From positions 12,439-76,438 of the forward strand of contig JBAXQK010000003.1 in NCBI GenBank assembly GCA_037131775.1: 64,000 bases of DNA, in the 5' to 3' direction. Origin of the DNA: Candidatus Uhrbacteria bacterium. GTDB lineage: Bacteria; Patescibacteriota; Patescibacteriia; UBA9934; GWF2-40-263. The notes beneath the pieces are model-generated. The model had not been told where the DNA came from. It searched no databases and was given only the letters and a program-made list of their open reading frames with translations. Both the position numbers and the translations under genes were made by a program. How positions within the stretch are numbered: position 1 is the first letter of the stretch; each line of letters starts with the position of its first letter. Below, in pieces: positions 3,081-14,046 of the stretch.

Positions 3081-4235
3081 TCATTGCGAGGTCATAGCCG
3101 AAGCAATCTTTTGGAGACGCTGGACGATCGTCGCGGCGACGTCCGTCCTCAGCAGCTTCTGAACATTGTCGCCAAGCGACCGTCGACGCTGTTCGTCGCG
3201 CAGCAACCCGCGAATCGCCTCGAGACACTCCTGCGGACTCGTGGCATCCTCGCAAAGGACGACTGCCGCCTCGCCCGCCTCGAGAACCCGCGCATTGTCC
3301 TCCTGCGGCGAATTCGGCAGCGGAACGACGATCGCCGCCTTCCCTCTCGCGGAAAGGTCCGAGATCGTTCCCATCCCGGCGCGACACACGACCAGGTCCG
3401 CGGCGGTCAGCGCGTCGGACATCGCCTCGGTAAGCAGCTCGACCGCGACGTAGTTGTCGCCCATGGATTCAAGCGTCGGCGTCATCTTGCCCGTCCCGAC
3501 GATGTGGATCACGTTCGCGGTCTCCGCGATCTCGCGCCCGATCGTTTCCATGAGGCGGTTCAGGAACAGCGCACCTCCGCCTCCGCCGAAGACAAGGACT
3601 GTTGGGCGCGAGGGGTCAAGACCGAAGCGACGAACGTAGGACTCGTGAAAACCCGACGGGACTAGAGTCCCTGGGAATTCCGTCGAGACGGGACTAAAGT
3701 CCCTGGGAAACGAGTTCACAGGGACTTTAGTCCCGTTCGCTCGCACAGGATTCCCCACCCACGCCGACTTCCCCTTCGGAAACGCCGCGAGCGACGATTC
3801 CCAGGCCGTCGAGATCCACGTCGCGAACGGGACGACGAGACGGCTCGACAGGATCGGACGAACGTCCTGCTGGTGGAGCCACGACGGGATCCCGAGCAGG
3901 CGCGCGGCGACGATGAGCGGAACGCCAGTAAATCCTCCCGCGGACGCGACAAGGTTCGGCTGTTCGTCCTTCAGAATCCCCCACGACTGCCGCGCCGCCC
4001 GAAACAGGTTCACCGGCAGCGTCAGCCACTCGACCGACGGATATCGCGTCAGACGCGCGACGGGAATCGAAACGAACCGCAGCCCCGCCGCCTCCACGAC
4101 CTTCCGGTCCGGCCCGCCCGGCGTCCCGACCCAAACGAACTCAACCGCAGGATCGACGACGCGCCAAGCCTCCGCGACGGCCAGAAGCGGCGTCACGGGC
4201 CCGAGCGTTCCTCCGCCGGCGAATAATATCTTCAT
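3081..4235 (-). CDS. murG: UDP-GlcNAc:lipid I N-acetylglucosaminyltransferase MurG
   Basis: MKILFAGGGTLGPVTP..., GNPVR, VLVFGGGGGA, VVCRAGMGTISD motifs; start taken at the internal Met (ORF-track N-extension unlikely); carries an extra ~25-aa loop encoded by a nucleotide repeat. Confidence 0.88.
   Translation of the reverse strand: MKILFAGGGTLGPVTPLLAVAEAWRVVDPAVEFVWVGTPGGPDRKVVEAAGLRFVSIPVARLTRYPSVEWLTLPVNLFRAARQSWGILKDEQPNLVASAGGFTGVPLIVAARLLGIPSWLHQQDVRPILSSRLVVPFATWISTAWESSLAAFPKGKSAWVGNPVRANGTKVPVNSFPRDFSPVSTEFPGTLVPSGFHESYVRRFGLDPSRPTVLVFGGGGGALFLNRLMETIGREIAETANVIHIVGTGKMTPTLESMGDNYVAVELLTEAMSDALTAADLVVCRAGMGTISDLSARGKAAIVVPLPNSPQEDNARVLEAGEAAVVLCEDATSPQECLEAIRGLLRDEQRRRSLGDNVQKLLRTDVAATIVQRLQKIASAMTSQ
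3654..3740. repeat. Three copies (two direct, one inverted) of palindromic motif ACGGGACTARAGTCCCTG inside the murG coding sequence
   Basis: Copies at ~3656-3677, 3688-3709 and inverted at 3719-3736; motif core GGGAC-N4-GTCCC is self-complementary. Confidence 0.75.
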
Positions 4236-4322
4236 AGTCGCTGAGTCATTGAGTCGCTGAGTCGCTGAGTTGAAAATTCCCAAGCAATTTTCCTTCACTC
4301 AATCACTCAACGACTCAACGAC

Positions 4323-5445: not shown

Positions 5446-6501
5446 TTATCGCATCAATGCGTCGAGAAGGGCGAGGGCGATTCCGATCGCGGCGGAGACC
5501 ATCGAGATGACCCAGAGCCGCATGACGATCTGCGGCTCAAGCCAGCCGGAGGCTTCCAGGTGATGGTGGAATGGCGCCGACAGAAACAGCTTTTTCTTGA
5601 ACAGCTTGCGCCAGGAGATTTGGAAGATAACGGACAATGACTCGAGCACGAACACGATTCCAATCACCGGCAGGAGCAGCGCCGAGTTCGTGAGCATCGC
5701 CACGATGCCGAGCGTGACGCCGAGCGACATGGCGCCCGTGTCGCCCATGAAGAACTTGGCGGGATAGATGTTTTCCCACAGGAACGCCAGCAGTGCGCCG
5801 ATGATCACGCCGCAGAACGCCGACAGGTCGTAGTGGCCCTGCGCGAACGCGACGATGGCGTACGCGGCGAACGCGGTGAACAGCGTGCCTCCCGCGAGGC
5901 CGTCGAGGCCGTCCGTCTCGTTGACCGAGAACGCGGTGGCGACGATGACGAAGATGAAGAACGGAACGTACCAGATGCCCACGTGGAAATCGCCCATGAA
6001 CGGGACGTGCAGCAGGTCCCAATCCAGCTTGGCGCGGAACCACCAGGCGCCGATGACCGCGATCAGCGTGTAGATCGCCAGCCGGTGGCGGGCACGGAGA
6101 CCTCCGCCGTGCGCTCCGAGGCCGCGGATGTTGAAGTAGTCGTCGACGAATCCGACGATGGCCGAGGCGACGAGCGCGCCGAGCGGAAGAAGCGTCTCGG
6201 AACGCGACAGGAAGCTCAGGCGCTCGAGGAACGTTCCCGGCACGGCCTGAGAGAGGACGGAGAGGCCGACGGCAAGCAGGAGGACCGTTCCCCAGATCAG
6301 GATACCGCCCATGGTCGGCGTCCCAGATTTCTTCGCGTGCAATTTCGCGAACACCGGCGTCTCGGCTCCCGGACGAATCGACTTTCCCGCGCGCCAGTGC
6401 ACGAGCGCCCAAAGCAGCATCGGCATCCACGCGAATGCGACGCCGAACGAAAGCGCGGTAAGCACGAGAACTCGGACGATCTCTGATGTTTCTAGGGTCA
6501 T
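5446..6501 (-). CDS. mraY: Phospho-N-acetylmuramoyl-pentapeptide transferase MraY
   Basis: 351 aa; conserved MraY blocks (DD...GLDGLAGG..., HH motif region); 10 TM-like segments. Confidence 0.9.
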   Translation of the reverse strand: MTLETSEIVRVLVLTALSFGVAFAWMPMLLWALVHWRAGKSIRPGAETPVFAKLHAKKSGTPTMGGILIWGTVLLLAVGLSVLSQAVPGTFLERLSFLSRSETLLPLGALVASAIVGFVDDYFNIRGLGAHGGGLRARHRLAIYTLIAVIGAWWFRAKLDWDLLHVPFMGDFHVGIWYVPFFIFVIVATAFSVNETDGLDGLAGGTLFTAFAAYAIVAFAQGHYDLSAFCGVIIGALLAFLWENIYPAKFFMGDTGAMSLGVTLGIVAMLTNSALLLPVIGIVFVLESLSVIFQISWRKLFKKKLFLSAPFHHHLEASGWLEPQIVMRLWVISMVSAAIGIALALLDALMR

Positions 6502-7204: not shown

Positions 7205-7489
7205 TTATGCCTTCACCTCGATCACGTTCGCGTACGTTGCGCGCTTCAGGGCGCCCGTAAAGTTCGTGCGCATCTTCTTGGAAAACTTCACCATGCCGTC
7301 GATTCCGGCGTAGATGGTGTCGTCCTTCCCCTTTTTCACGCCGGCTCCCGGGTGAATCTTGGTGCCGCGCTGGCGAACGATGATCTGACCGGCCAACGCG
7401 CGGTCGCCATCCGAAATTTTCACGCCGAGGCGCTGACCCTGAGAATCGCGACCAAGGGATGTAGAACCTGCTGCTTTTTTATGTGCCAT
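7205..7489 (-). CDS. rpmA: 50S ribosomal protein L27
   Basis: [24 protein letters not shown]...GGIDGMVKF, classic L27 sequence. Confidence 0.95.
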
Positions 7490-8054: not shown

Positions 8055-9617
8055 TCAGTAGGCGAAGGTGAACGTGGAGCCAGAGGACTCGATGGCGACG
8101 CTGACGTCGGTGAGCGTCTCGTCGACGTACCAGTGGTCCATGTTGGCCAGGCTGATGATGCCGTCCGCGTCGGTGGCGTACGGGCTGAAGCCGGTACGGC
8201 CTATTGAGATGGTCGTAGAGAAGCCGTCGCCGCCGTACGTTCCGTCCATGTCCGAGTAGCTTTTGTCAGTTGCCACGAGCATGATTCGGGCCGGCGAGAA
8301 TCCGGTGGTTTCCCAGGCATCCTCGTATCCGACGGGGACCGTGATCGTCACCTGGAAGCCGATCCCGTCGTTGTGGATCGCGACGGCCACCTCGCAGTCG
8401 GCGGTCGGCTCGTCGATGCCGGCCGTGCCGTCGCAGTCGAGATCTTCCGACGAGCAGCCCTCGTCAACGCCGGGGTGGACGCTCGCGTCGCGGTCGTCGC
8501 AGTCGTCCTCGCAGCCGAGGTACCCGTCGCCGTCCGCGTCGGAACCGGGAAAGGTCGAGGTGTCCGAGTCGTCGCAGTCGTCGCCGACCGTCGTCGCGTT
8601 CCAGAACGCGGTCGGATTGCAGGTGACATCGGTCACGCCCGGGTCGCCGTAGCCGTCCCGGTCGCCGTCGTTGTACCAGGTCATCGCATCCACCGCGTCA
8701 TTGTCGACCTGCCCGTCGCAGTCGTTGTCGCTCCAGTCGCAGATCTCGGGAGCGCCGGGATAGCTGACCGGGTTCCAGTCCTCGCAGTCGGTGGCATCCG
8801 CGACGTAGCCTTCAGGCTGATCGCAGGCGAACTCGACCTTTCCGGAATCGCCGAACCCGTCGGCGTCGCTGTCGAGGTAGAACGGCGTTCCGTCCTCGGG
8901 ATCGTCGTCGACTTCCCCGCTGCAGTCGTTGTCCACGCCGTCGCAGAGCTCTGTCGCCGCGGTCCGGATCGCCGGGTCCGCGTCGTCGCAGTCGTACCCT
9001 TTCGTCGCGTAGCCGTCGACGGGACGCTCGCAGGCGATGACCATGACGTCGGGGTTGCCCTCGAAGTCGCCGTCCGCGTCCGCATAGAACGTCTTTCCGT
9101 CCACGGGCTCCTCGTCGACCGCGCCGTCGCAGTCGTCGTCGAGCCCGTCGCACGTTTCGATCCCGGCCGGGCTGACGGCGGCGTTTCCGTCGTCGCAGTC
9201 CGTGCCGTCCGCGACGTATGCGGAAATCGTCTCGCAGGAGACGAACGGGGCGTTCGGATCGCCGAACCCGTCGGCGTCCGCATCGGCGAACCATGAGGTC
9301 GCGTCGAGCGAATCCGTCGGATCGACCGCGCCGTCGCAGTCGTCGTCGATCCCGTTGCAGAGCTCATCCGCGCCGGGGTGAACCTTCGGCCTCGCGTCAT
9401 CGCAGTCGTCCGCGTTGTCCGCGTAGTACCGGAGCTTGACGCACGACGAGATCGTCTCGCCGTTCGCGTCACCGTACCCGTCGTCGTCCGCATCCGTGTA
9501 AAACGTCGCGGGTTCCTGGCCGTCGACGCAGGGTGACGAGTTCGACGGAGAAACGGAATCGTTGGTCGTAGCGATCGTGGGGTTCTGGCAGGCAATCGTC
9601 AGCAAAAGAGCGAGCAT
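8055..9617 (-). CDS. Secreted lipoprotein with tandem Asp/Cys-rich putative metal-binding (MopE-like) repeats
   Basis: Lipobox LLTIAC after an internal Met; repeated DxDxDGYGD...CDDxDxxxxPGAxExCDGxDxDCDG units about 8 times. Confidence 0.75.
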   Translation of the reverse strand: MLALLLTIACQNPTIATTNDSVSPSNSSPCVDGQEPATFYTDADDDGYGDANGETISSCVKLRYYADNADDCDDARPKVHPGADELCNGIDDDCDGAVDPTDSLDATSWFADADADGFGDPNAPFVSCETISAYVADGTDCDDGNAAVSPAGIETCDGLDDDCDGAVDEEPVDGKTFYADADGDFEGNPDVMVIACERPVDGYATKGYDCDDADPAIRTAATELCDGVDNDCSGEVDDDPEDGTPFYLDSDADGFGDSGKVEFACDQPEGYVADATDCEDWNPVSYPGAPEICDWSDNDCDGQVDNDAVDAMTWYNDGDRDGYGDPGVTDVTCNPTAFWNATTVGDDCDDSDTSTFPGSDADGDGYLGCEDDCDDRDASVHPGVDEGCSSEDLDCDGTAGIDEPTADCEVAVAIHNDGIGFQVTITVPVGYEDAWETTGFSPARIMLVATDKSYSDMDGTYGGDGFSTTISIGRTGFSPYATDADGIISLANMDHWYVDETLTDVSVAIESSGSTFTFAY

Positions 9618-9730
9618 CGTGTGTATTCCTCTGGTTTGGTTGGGTATCGGTCCGGCCACGCCGGCCGCCGACGGTATCAAGAACGAGGCTGTTTGTCAAT
9701 CGTTACATGGGGAGAACCGTTGCGTTTGCG

Positions 9731-10336: not shown

Positions 10337-11557
10337 TTACGCGACCTCCTCGACGACCACCTTCTCCGGCATCTTCACGCGCGTCACGCGGCAGACGAAG
10401 CTCTTCAAGTAAATCGACTCCGGGAAATACACGCTCTGCGGATGGTCGGCGGCCTGGCGGATTACCGCGAGGATCTCGAGGCGAAGTCCAGCCTGGACGG
10501 ATGCGCGGCGAAGGATGAACGCGAGGTCTTCCTCGGGAAGGAAGTGCGAACAGCTGGAGGTGATGAACAGGCCGCCGTCGGCGACGAGGCGCATCGCGGC
10601 GCGGTTCAGGAAATGGTAGGCCTTCTTTCCTTCCTCGGCATCGCGGCCGGCCTTGATGAGCGCCGGGGGGTCGATGATGACCGCGTCGTAGCGGGAGTCC
10701 TTGTTCACGTTCAGGAAATCAAACGCGTCGGTGTCCTGGACGGTGAACTTGTCGGCGTCGATGCCGTTCATCTCGGCGTGGCGGGCGCATCCGGCGAGGG
10801 CGGCCTCGGAGCCGTCGACGTTGTGCACGCGCTCGGCGCCACTCTTCATGGCCGCGATTCCGGCGGCTCCGGTGTACGAGAACATGTTCAGCACGCTTCC
10901 CTTCACGCCGTGGTCGAGGATCCACTTGCGCAGGTCCTTCTGGTCGAGAAAGAATCCAGTCTTCTGCCCGAACGCGACGTCGGCCGTGAACTTCAGGCCG
11001 TTCTCCGTGAACGGAACCGGCTCCGGGTCCGTGCCGTAGCGAAGCGCGCTCACCGGGCCGAGGTTGTCCTCCTTGCGCACCGGCAGGTCGCTGCGCTCGA
11101 CGATCGCGGTCGGCTCGTAGACTTCGACGAGAGCCGCGACAACGTCGTCGCGCAGGTTCTCAAGTCCCGCGGTCGCGATCTGCATCACGAGCACGTTCTC
11201 GTACTTGTCGACGACCAGACCCGGAACTCCGTCGGCCTCGCCGAACAGCACGCGATACGCGGTCGTGTTCGCCGGGACGGTGATCGCGCGCGACGCCTGC
11301 GCCGCGCGAATCTTTTCGACGAACCAGGCCTTGTCGATCACGGCCTCCTTGAACTCAAAGAGGCGCACGCGGATCGAGCTCGACTTCGAGTACGTCCCGG
11401 TTCCGATGATCGTTCCCTTCCGATCGGAAACATGCACGAGCCCGCCGTGCTCCACGTCGTCCGGAACCACCGCCACCGCGCCCGAAAACACCCACGGGTG
11501 CCAGAATCCGATTGCCGCCTCCTTGCCTGGAACAAGCTGAACGATTGGGTAGGACAT
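10337..11557 (-). CDS. Class I SAM-dependent rRNA (cytosine-C5) methyltransferase, RlmI/YccW-like (PUA + MTase)
   Basis: 406 aa; SAM-binding motif region ...VLNMFSYTGAAGIAAM..., DPP(A) motif IIDPPAL, conserved Cys TSSCS. Confidence 0.8.
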   Translation of the reverse strand: MSYPIVQLVPGKEAAIGFWHPWVFSGAVAVVPDDVEHGGLVHVSDRKGTIIGTGTYSKSSSIRVRLFEFKEAVIDKAWFVEKIRAAQASRAITVPANTTAYRVLFGEADGVPGLVVDKYENVLVMQIATAGLENLRDDVVAALVEVYEPTAIVERSDLPVRKEDNLGPVSALRYGTDPEPVPFTENGLKFTADVAFGQKTGFFLDQKDLRKWILDHGVKGSVLNMFSYTGAAGIAAMKSGAERVHNVDGSEAALAGCARHAEMNGIDADKFTVQDTDAFDFLNVNKDSRYDAVIIDPPALIKAGRDAEEGKKAYHFLNRAAMRLVADGGLFITSSCSHFLPEEDLAFILRRASVQAGLRLEILAVIRQAADHPQSVYFPESIYLKSFVCRVTRVKMPEKVVVEEVA

Positions 11558-13536: not shown

Positions 13537-13611
13537 GTTTGTAGTGAGTAGTGAGTTGTGGTAGCCGACTACTCACCACTCACTACAAACCAAAGAGGGA
13601 CGTTAGTCCCT
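13537..13611 (-). promoter_or_regulatory. Structured pyrG leader: long imperfect hairpin (13537-13590) plus GGGAC-GTTA-GTCCC palindrome (13596-13611) overlapping the rplI stop
   Basis: gtttgtagtgagt...actcactacaaac pairing with additional inner pairs; no SD before the pyrG ATG. Confidence 0.45.
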
Positions 13612-14046
13612 TGATTCAACGATGACTCGGATGGTGGCCTCAAAGCCGTGCGGAAGATTGACCACCGCCTCCCGCTCTCCCGGCTCCTTCATCGGCGGCA
13701 TTTCCACCGCGTCCTCGGGAACCGCGAATCCGTTTTTCTTCAGCAGCGCCGCGACCGTCTTGGCCGTGACCGCCGCGTAGAGCACCCCGCTCTCGTTCGC
13801 CTTCTCCTTGACGACGAGCTCGAACCCGTCCAGCGCCGAGGCAAGCTTCTTGGCCTCGTTCTCGCCCTTCTTCGCGACTTTCACGAGTTTCGCCTCCGCC
13901 TCGCGCATCCGCTGGATGGACTGCTCGGTGGCCTGAACTCCCAGATTCTGTGGGAACAGAAAATTGATCGCATAGCCGTCGGAAACGTTCGCCACGTCCC
14001 CGCGCCGGCCGAGGGCCTTCACGTCCTTGAGGAGAATCACTTTCAT
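13603..14046 (-). CDS. rplI: 50S ribosomal protein L9
   Basis: MKVILLKDVKALGRRGDVANVSDGYAINFLFPQ... classic L9. Confidence 0.92.
   Translation of the reverse strand: MKVILLKDVKALGRRGDVANVSDGYAINFLFPQNLGVQATEQSIQRMREAEAKLVKVAKKGENEAKKLASALDGFELVVKEKANESGVLYAAVTAKTVAALLKKNGFAVPEDAVEMPPMKEPGEREAVVNLPHGFEATIRVIVESRD

Follow-up and report, generated by a model that had tools for sequence, protein, structure and literature searches.

A cluster of three REP-like palindromic units, probably of a transposase-associated repeat family, lies in frame within murG of a Candidatus Uhrbacteria genome

The murG gene of a Candidatus Uhrbacteria bacterium (assembly GCA_037131775.1, contig JBAXQK010000003.1, positions 12,439 to 76,438; this whole stretch of 64,000 nucleotides is referred to as the window and carries its own numbering) contains a segment of three short palindromes that is translated as part of the protein. 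The segment is an insertion, present in some close relatives and absent in others, and its repeating unit, ACGGGACTAAAGTCCCTG(N)GAA, is a dispersed repeat. We consider it very probable that these 87 bp represent a cluster of three repetitive extragenic palindrome (REP) units, namely a doublet resembling a REPIN (an inverted pair of REPs that forms a hairpin) and one extra unit, which belong to a family associated with REP-associated tyrosine transposases (RAYTs) and were inserted in murG. In what follows, labels beginning with L refer to matched stretches of DNA and labels beginning with P to MurG homologs.

Results

The motif GGGAC-N4-GTCCC has four matches in the window compared to 0.21-0.23 expected, and none of 100 shuffled sequences reached four. 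Three of the matches, GGGACTAGAGTCCC (3658-3671), GGGACTAAAGTCCC (3690-3703) and GGGACTTTAGTCCC (3721-3734), lie inside murG within 3658-3734, against 0.2 copies expected by chance. The fourth, GGGACGTTAGTCCC (13597-13610), is a single variant copy at the 3' end of rplI, in the rplI-pyrG spacer, and an earlier note on this DNA, made from the letters alone, was right to regard it as related. The same note described the repeat as an 18-bp self-complementary motif. The palindrome is real, but the repeated unit exceeds 18 bp and self-complementarity is confined to a 14-nt core; the flanks, AC...TG, lack it and give each unit an orientation. Judged by these flanks, murG holds two direct copies and one inverted copy, as had been proposed. 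Each unit is about 26 nt in size and consists of a 5-bp GC-rich stem, a 4-nt loop and asymmetric flanks. Unit 1 (3714..3740, minus strand; GCGAACGGGACTAAAGTCCCTGTGAAC on the coding strand) encodes the peptide NGTKVPVN. Unit 2 (3685..3710, plus strand; GAGACGGGACTAAAGTCCCTGGGAAA) is inverted relative to unit 1 and encodes FPRDFSPV, and unit 3 (3653..3678, plus strand; CCGACGGGACTAGAGTCCCTGGGAAT) is a direct repeat of unit 2 and encodes FPGTLVPS. The direct repeat (3655-3677 and 3687-3709) shows 96% identity. Units 2 and 1 together form the REPIN-like inverted doublet (3688..3736), the 22-nt arms of which (3688-3709 and 3715-3736) are 95% complementary and separated by 5 nt.

The host gene (3081..4235, minus strand) encodes 384 amino acids from its first Met at 4235; without a start constraint the open reading frame (ORF) spans 3081-4298 (405 amino acids). 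Its identity as MurG is based on Pfam, invariant alignment columns, an AlphaFold2 model and Foldseek. In the 405-residue ORF, Pfam recognizes Glyco_transf_28 (residues 24-161) and Glyco_tran_28_C (residues 233-379), and the features of the class are present: the N- and C-terminal GT28 domains, the G-loops, the GNPVR and GGGG motifs and the GT-B fold. The homologs carry the MurG annotation, the nearest ones being from Candidatus Uhrbacteria or Patescibacteria, and the gene is located downstream of mraY and ftsW. The reading frame runs uninterrupted across all three repeats, in agreement with the earlier note. The inserted segment NGTKVPVNSFPRDFSPVSTEFPGTLVP (3657..3737, minus strand) is 81 nt long, comprises codons N167-P193 and stands in for about two native codons, giving a net gain of 25 codons (75 nt); the tryptic peptides that it spells are VPVNSFPR and DFSPVSTEFPGTLVPSGFHESYVR. 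The distance from GNPVR to GGGG is 52 residues in the window MurG and 27 in insert-free relatives, so that the earlier estimate of about 25 extra residues was correct and the two loop lengths given with it were approximate.

The murG cluster was also found in separate assemblies: L131, L001 and L002. L131 is 99.9% identical to the window and represents the window's own genome; it carries the cluster at its positions 374, 405 and 437 and reaches 10 kb past the window. Because independent assemblies share the cluster, it is not an assembly artefact.

Comparison of the murG site among close relatives, by protein and DNA alignment, showed that P0001 and P0002 have the same three-palindrome segment as the window MurG, whereas P0003 (L003) has the inverted doublet alone. 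P0004, P0005, P0007, P0009 and P0010 are MurG proteins of 80-88% identity without the insert. A different insert of 32 residues is found at the same codon in P0008, where it consists of an inverted pair of the palindrome GCGGGTCAC-CGA/TCG-GTGACCCGC, and P0006 has one degenerate copy of this palindrome at the site. This second palindrome family is located at L004 8867-8958, L008 ~1600-1640 and L006 ~10480-10545; in the window, its motif GGGTCAC-N3-GTGACCC gave 0 matches at up to 2 mismatches. The insert-free murG sequence of L006, TTCGTCAC-TCG-GTGGCGAA, is itself a near-palindrome. The earlier note had suggested aligning close relatives to establish lineage specificity, and had allowed for native sequence if these had the same loop length and the motif was absent elsewhere; the insert proved to be lineage-specific, the relatives differ in loop length, some with and some without the insert, and the motif does occur elsewhere, so that this check does not refute an insertion. 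In a neighbour-joining tree of murG, computed with the inserted segment taken out, the insert-free L009 is nested in the three-copy clade (bootstrap 97-98.5), and L003, with the GGGAC doublet, is sister to L004, with the other palindrome (bootstrap 93.5). These placements indicate that the murG site is a recurrent hot spot, whether by gain, loss, replacement or recombination.

The insert comes immediately behind the GNPVR motif, where the two domains meet. A HMMER match to MurG of Pseudomonas aeruginosa breaks at this point (166|205 in the query, 164|175 in the chain). The AlphaFold2 model, built from 104 sequences, has a mean pLDDT (predicted local distance difference test) of 91.3 and a pTM (predicted template modelling score) of 0.88, and its best Foldseek matches are the MurG structures 3s2u (TM score 0.87 on the target), 1nlm and 1f0k. 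Residues 169-192 are the only segment with a pLDDT below 50 and have no secondary structure in the model. MurG is thus predicted to have a normal fold in which only the inserted loop is disordered. In the E. coli MurG structures, the N-domain and the interdomain linker end with GNPVR, by which the loop would be a surface feature where the C-domain begins. These results support the view of the earlier note that a miniature palindromic element lies in frame in a tolerant MurG loop, at the junction of two Rossmann-like domains.

To define the distribution of the repeat, the 18-mer ACGGGACTARAGTCCCTG was scanned against genome contigs with one genome per species, which yielded at least 112 stretches. 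Among the matches listed, the 18-mer occurs on several contigs each of several Uhrbacteria metagenome-assembled genomes (MAGs), and also in MAGs of Campylobacterota and Lysobacterales. The Campylobacterota copies (Sulfurovum, Nitratifractor) read GGAG(T/C)AGGGACTTTAGTCCCnT-N3-ACGGGACTAAAGTCCCTGCTCC, and those of Lysobacterales come paired with GGGGTTCGGACTTTAGTCCGTC. The Uhrbacteria-type flank ...CCCTG(G/A/T)GAA, together with a companion palindrome AGCCACTTTAGTGGCGT, is found in several Candidatus Uhrbacteria MAGs and in two MAGs titled 'uncultured Gammaproteobacteria', CAYYFM01 (L013, L030, L044, L092 and others) and CAYRYG01 (L031, L101, L102 and others). The latter two are probably mislabelled Patescibacteria, because their valyl-tRNA synthetase (ValRS) is 65% identical to that of L122, a contig of the window's metagenome, and tblastx ties them to the window. 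A 22-mer including the Uhrbacteria flank matched 30 metagenome stretches, L131 among them. Seven further contigs of the window's own metagenome (Ga0194060) carry the element, which brings this metagenome to at least 8 contigs and at least 13 copies; for the nearest MAG, LJ_bin-4636, the matches listed include at least 7 copies, in 6 stretches from 5 contigs. Inverted doublets are present in L003, L052, L087, L132, L138 and L140.

Beyond the murG cluster, no other tagged or ACTWWAGT-centred palindromes occurred in the window above the shuffle level. An intergenic trio (AGGACTAAAGTCCCT, GCCACTAAAGTGGC and GGGACTTTAGTCCC) lies in L131 at 7220-7310 between a 118-aa ORF and lexA, in the same genome and about 3.1-3.2 kb outside window position 1, showing that this genome has ordinary extragenic copies too. 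The palindrome GGGACGTTAGTCCC at 13597-13610 is missing at the matching position in relatives. There the rplI-pyrG spacer (window 13540-13620) has a terminator-like hairpin CTGGAGCTTCGTCTCCAG followed by TTTT; the window has GGGACGTTAGTCCC and a long hairpin (GTAGTGAGTGGTGAGTAG...CTACTCACTAC) instead, and its final rplI codons differ. Among other arrangements of the 18-mer, L079 has a tandem array with a 36-nt period (23-112), and in L090 (3220-4030), from a Balneolaceae MAG, its copies are spaced 390-400 nt apart and are each followed by identical sequence, as could be the case in a cassette-like or tandem gene array. CRISPR and integron attC arrays were considered as readings of L079 and L090, which have no bearing on the window. 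A copy in L027 beside a region syntenic with the window was set aside, as it lies at the synteny break and does not offer a clean presence/absence site.

In Uhrbacteria-type genomes, most of the copies are located in frame in protein-coding sequence. Among the matches listed, the fraction inside stop-free ORFs of at least 150 amino acids is 50% for the Uhrbacteria MAGs and 76-78% for the two probably mislabelled ones, compared to 18% in Campylobacterota and 8% in Lysobacterales. Host genes confirmed by Pfam encode ValRS, Amidohydro_3, Lactamase_B (ComEC-like), MurF, LigA, UvrA, CysRS and HolA; the ValRS and amidohydrolase copies are on contigs of the window's own metagenome, and the ValRS copy is placed between the catalytic and the anticodon-binding domains. 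Four of the six frames of the element are open. The frames used translate as GT(K/L)VP and RDFSP, and the two frames with TAA or TAG are absent. A doublet on another contig of the window's metagenome (L140) lies inside an ORF without a Pfam match, Clp_N-like by eye only. In L122 (~6180-6260) and L092, which form the ValRS pair of 65% identity, GGGAC and GCCAC palindromes occupy the same variable loop ahead of the anticodon-binding domain, and both genes retain the complete 18-mer; this may be either an ancient insertion kept perfect or the repeated use of one site. A copy in dinB of L007 (10629-10642) was not counted as an insertion since the orthologs are of equal length. It is a perfect GGGACTAAAGTCCC encoding ANGTKVPEK, where the L006 ortholog has GGGAAAAAAGTCCC and L001 has diverged, and either this copy is old and undergoing decay at its site or it was made by conversion.

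The link between this repeat family and RAYTs comes from five loci at which ORFs for IS200-like Y1 transposases (Y1_Tnp, PF01797) sit directly between copies of the element: L050 (Sulfurovum), L026 (Lysobacterales), and L123, L154 and L158 (Patescibacteria clade). In L026, arrays of the element are found on both sides of the gene. In L154 and L158, the 22-mer ACGGGACTAAAGTCCCTGTGAA that flanks the gene matches murG unit 1 exactly. The L123 transposase has homologs that form a small clade and are called 'REP element-mobilizing transposase RayT' by JGI; where a source is named, it is Candidatus Uhrbacteria or Patescibacteria. Around other RAYTs of the clade lie palindromes that share the outer tags (TTCnCAG...CGTC) and have different stems, GGGGC-TAAA-GCCCC in L152 and GCCATC-TCT-GATGGC in L153. 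Judged from these sequences, shared tags combined with different stems are the pattern expected of cognate REP-RAYT pairs. In L006, an ORF between the RNase_H_2 and Peptidase_C39 genes, the position of the RAYT in L153, turned out not to be a RAYT. The Uhrbacteria MAG stretch L040 has, at 1-700, a Y1_Tnp gene beside a different palindrome family, CCGGCTCT(C/G)AGAGCCGG, and about 600 nt away a GGGAC unit in frame in murF (1061-1078; LRDFSPV).

At the nucleic acid level, the 141-nt transcript of the region folds with -73.8 kcal/mol (z -5.4), and no shuffled sequence was as stable. In the predicted RNA structure, units 1 and 2 pair into a hairpin of about 30 bp, and unit 3 folds into a small one of its own. 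As single-stranded DNA, the insert region folds with a z-score of -8.3, units 1 and 2 again forming the long hairpin. A promoter and terminator scan of 3300-4100 gave nothing inside the insert; in the whole interval there was a lone terminator-like match (4079-4091) and no promoter-like site. Rfam, run in E-value mode on the same interval, returned only sub-threshold chance matches to miRNA and CRISPR direct repeat (CRISPR-DR) models. Comparing the window with L001, 0 of 30 stem positions, 4 of 12 loop positions and 3 of 39 spacer positions have changed, at 12.9% divergence over the whole gene. Between window 3657-3737 and L001 6504-6584, the first base of each of the three loops, read on the coding strand, is changed from T to G (TAAA/TTTA/TCTA versus GAAA/GTTA/GTTA), and the change follows the strand and not the orientation of the element. 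This triple change leaves room for a functional or homogenising process.

A further feature of the window, unrelated to the palindromes, is a 541-aa ORF at 8055-9680 (minus strand) with five Cu-binding_MopE repeats (PF11617, E-value 7.6e-43).

Discussion

The reading that we prefer, in which a cluster of RAYT-associated REP units was inserted in murG, would imply the following course. A RAYT would recognise the hairpin on single-stranded DNA and copy or move it, and one or a few successive events would have put the units in murG just past the GNPVR codons. The allele could have survived owing to a net length of 75 nt, a multiple of three, to frames that are stop-free and to a site in a surface loop where the N- and C-domains meet. 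The resulting MurG would fold normally and carry a disordered loop of 27 residues, the sequence of which (GTKVP, RDFSP, GTLVP) is set by the palindromes. RAYT catalysis in this genome, the neutrality of the insert and the order of events are inferred. Several observations weigh against such a course. The copy density is low here, with two loci in 64 kb, and tblastn found no RAYT in the window or in the 10-kb L131 extension, so that for this genome the association rests on relatives. The 5' tags of the window copies are CCAG, CCAG and ACAG where classical RAYT-bound REPs have GTAG. The insert-free L009 inside the three-copy clade calls for loss, recombination or repeated gain, and the stems are conserved beyond the rest of the gene, which fits selection or gene conversion better than a neutral relic.

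RAYTs were reportedly described by Nunvar in 2010. The repeats studied here share many properties with described REP/REPIN-RAYT systems (Bertels and Rainey, 2011, PMC3116915; Ton-Hoang / Messing, 2012, PMC3479197): a palindrome of about 25 nt with an orienting flank and a short, imperfect stem-loop, inverted doublets that give a long hairpin, clusters of units, arrays that, in relatives, directly flank a single Y1_Tnp gene, and stems that differ from one RAYT variant to another in a single clade. In Campylobacterota, the 5' tag of copies with this core is GTAG/GCAG. The murG copies differ from these systems in being intragenic and translated, in having CCAG/ACAG in place of GTAG 5' of the hairpin, and in their low apparent copy number; nor are REPs in Uhrbacteria-type genomes generally extragenic, as 50-78% of the copies among the matches listed are in long ORFs. 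A literature search turned up no account of REP-RAYT systems, or of palindromic repeats in frame within genes, for Patescibacteria or the candidate phyla radiation.

Palindromes within genes have precedents. Intragenic REPs with GTAG/CGTC tags were described by Di Nocera, De Gregorio and Rocco (2013; PMC3733652) as singles and dimers within ORFs, encoding 20-30 amino acids, with DNA-repair genes such as uvrA among the hosts; this is the same phenomenon as the UvrA, LigA and other copies found here. The host groups listed in that paper are Proteobacteria, Cyanobacteria, Chloroflexi, the Planctomycetes-Verrucomicrobia-Chlamydiae (PVC) group, Chlorobi, Bacteroidetes, Spirochaetes and Thermotogae, a list without Patescibacteria, and no transposase is reported as found for CGTC-tagged REPs. 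By comparison, the Uhrbacteria units, one side of which ends in ...CGTC, do flank RAYTs, and their tag order is apparently opposite to the one given there. The classic in-frame palindromic insertions are the Rickettsia palindromic elements (RPEs; Ogata et al., 2000; from the accounts in PMC10969869 and PMC3733652). According to these accounts, RPEs are likewise selfish palindromes that have entered numerous unrelated housekeeping genes of a reduced genome in frame, and they encode peptides compatible with the host fold; RPE-1, however, at about 100-150 bp, specifies a single conserved peptide, some 30-50 amino acids long, and RPEs are without a known transposase. The murG-type units are of about 26 nt, occur as singles, doublets and triplets, use several frames and are RAYT-associated. 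With Patescibacteria as host and a unit much shorter than RPE-1, the likeness to RPEs would be one of behaviour only.

The earlier note raised slipped duplication; in such a local origin, a native murG palindrome would have been duplicated by strand slippage without any relation to mobile DNA. Units 2 and 3 repeat directly at a period of 32 nt, and local duplication of unit 2 could have given rise to unit 3; a weak palindrome exists at the site even in insert-free relatives such as L006. As the origin of the family, however, slippage was rejected: the same 22-26-nt unit with its flanks is found in unrelated genes and intergenic regions of this and other genomes, it flanks RAYT genes, and the inverted doublet of L003 is impossible by tandem slippage. 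We regard such an origin as very improbable. Even less probable is selection of the loop for a new property of MurG, such as contact with MraY, FtsW or the membrane. The loop adjoins the interdomain hinge and the conserved Arg of GNPVR and has been retained in at least three sampled lineages, but its peptide is simply the translation of the palindromes, GTKVP, GTLVPS and RDFSPV being found in unrelated enzymes as well; it is predicted to be disordered, and near relatives show presence, absence and replacement.

The hairpins could instead be kept for a role in nucleic acids, either in the mRNA, by affecting translation pausing, stability or RNase processing in the mraY-ftsW-murG operon, or in the DNA, as a binding site for a regulator. 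We judge this improbable, yet clearly less so than slippage or protein-level adaptation. The exceptional stability of the folded transcript and the unchanged stems speak in its favour, as does the 18-mer, which is preserved without change at one and the same ValRS loop in proteins sharing just 65% identity, and the core GGGACTAAAGTCCC agrees with the probe TTGGGGACTAAAGTCCCTAA used in an electrophoretic mobility shift assay (EMSA) for the DosR (DevR) box of Mycobacterium tuberculosis (PMC5999986). Close relatives, however, are insert-free or have a different palindrome at the same place, the insert has no terminator- or promoter-like site, and copies occur in unrelated genes with no common context. 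Stem conservation would also result from recent insertion or from gene conversion among copies. The DosR probe was the only match in a literature search by the repeat sequence itself, and although its 14-nt core is identical to GGGACTAAAGTCCC, organism and context are different and the copies of the present repeat are dispersed, translated and found beside RAYT genes; the two palindromes probably agree by chance.

Returning to the insertion of RAYT-associated units, a bolder form of it, which we put forward tentatively and hold to be doubtful, is that Patescibacteria (Uhrbacteria) host REPIN-RAYT systems of their own, with copies mainly in essential genes and palindromes that are actively kept perfect. 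This is suggested by stems that are unchanged at 13% gene divergence, by the intact 18-mer in the ValRS loop at 65% protein identity, and by the use of the same murG codon by two element families. If true, the palindromes would not be passive junk, and RAYT-driven homogenisation or a host function (an mRNA or single-stranded DNA hairpin, or a protein-binding site) would be at work. As an instance of selfish DNA within protein-coding genes, here of ultra-small genomes, it would be the second, independent of the first and open to mechanistic study.

Intragenic REPs and RPEs were already known, so that no new principle is involved. What the murG cluster and its relatives indicate is that in the ultra-small genomes of Patescibacteria, transposase-associated palindromes are not kept out of coding sequence, and that essential enzymes (MurG, MurF, aminoacyl-tRNA synthetases, LigA, UvrA) gain short disordered loops. 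For annotation, this means that odd loop insertions and contig breaks at palindromes are real and explainable. For REP-RAYT biology, a candidate transposase is in hand, unlike for the Rickettsia elements. For protein evolution, the copies amount to a natural insertion scan that marks permissive loops.

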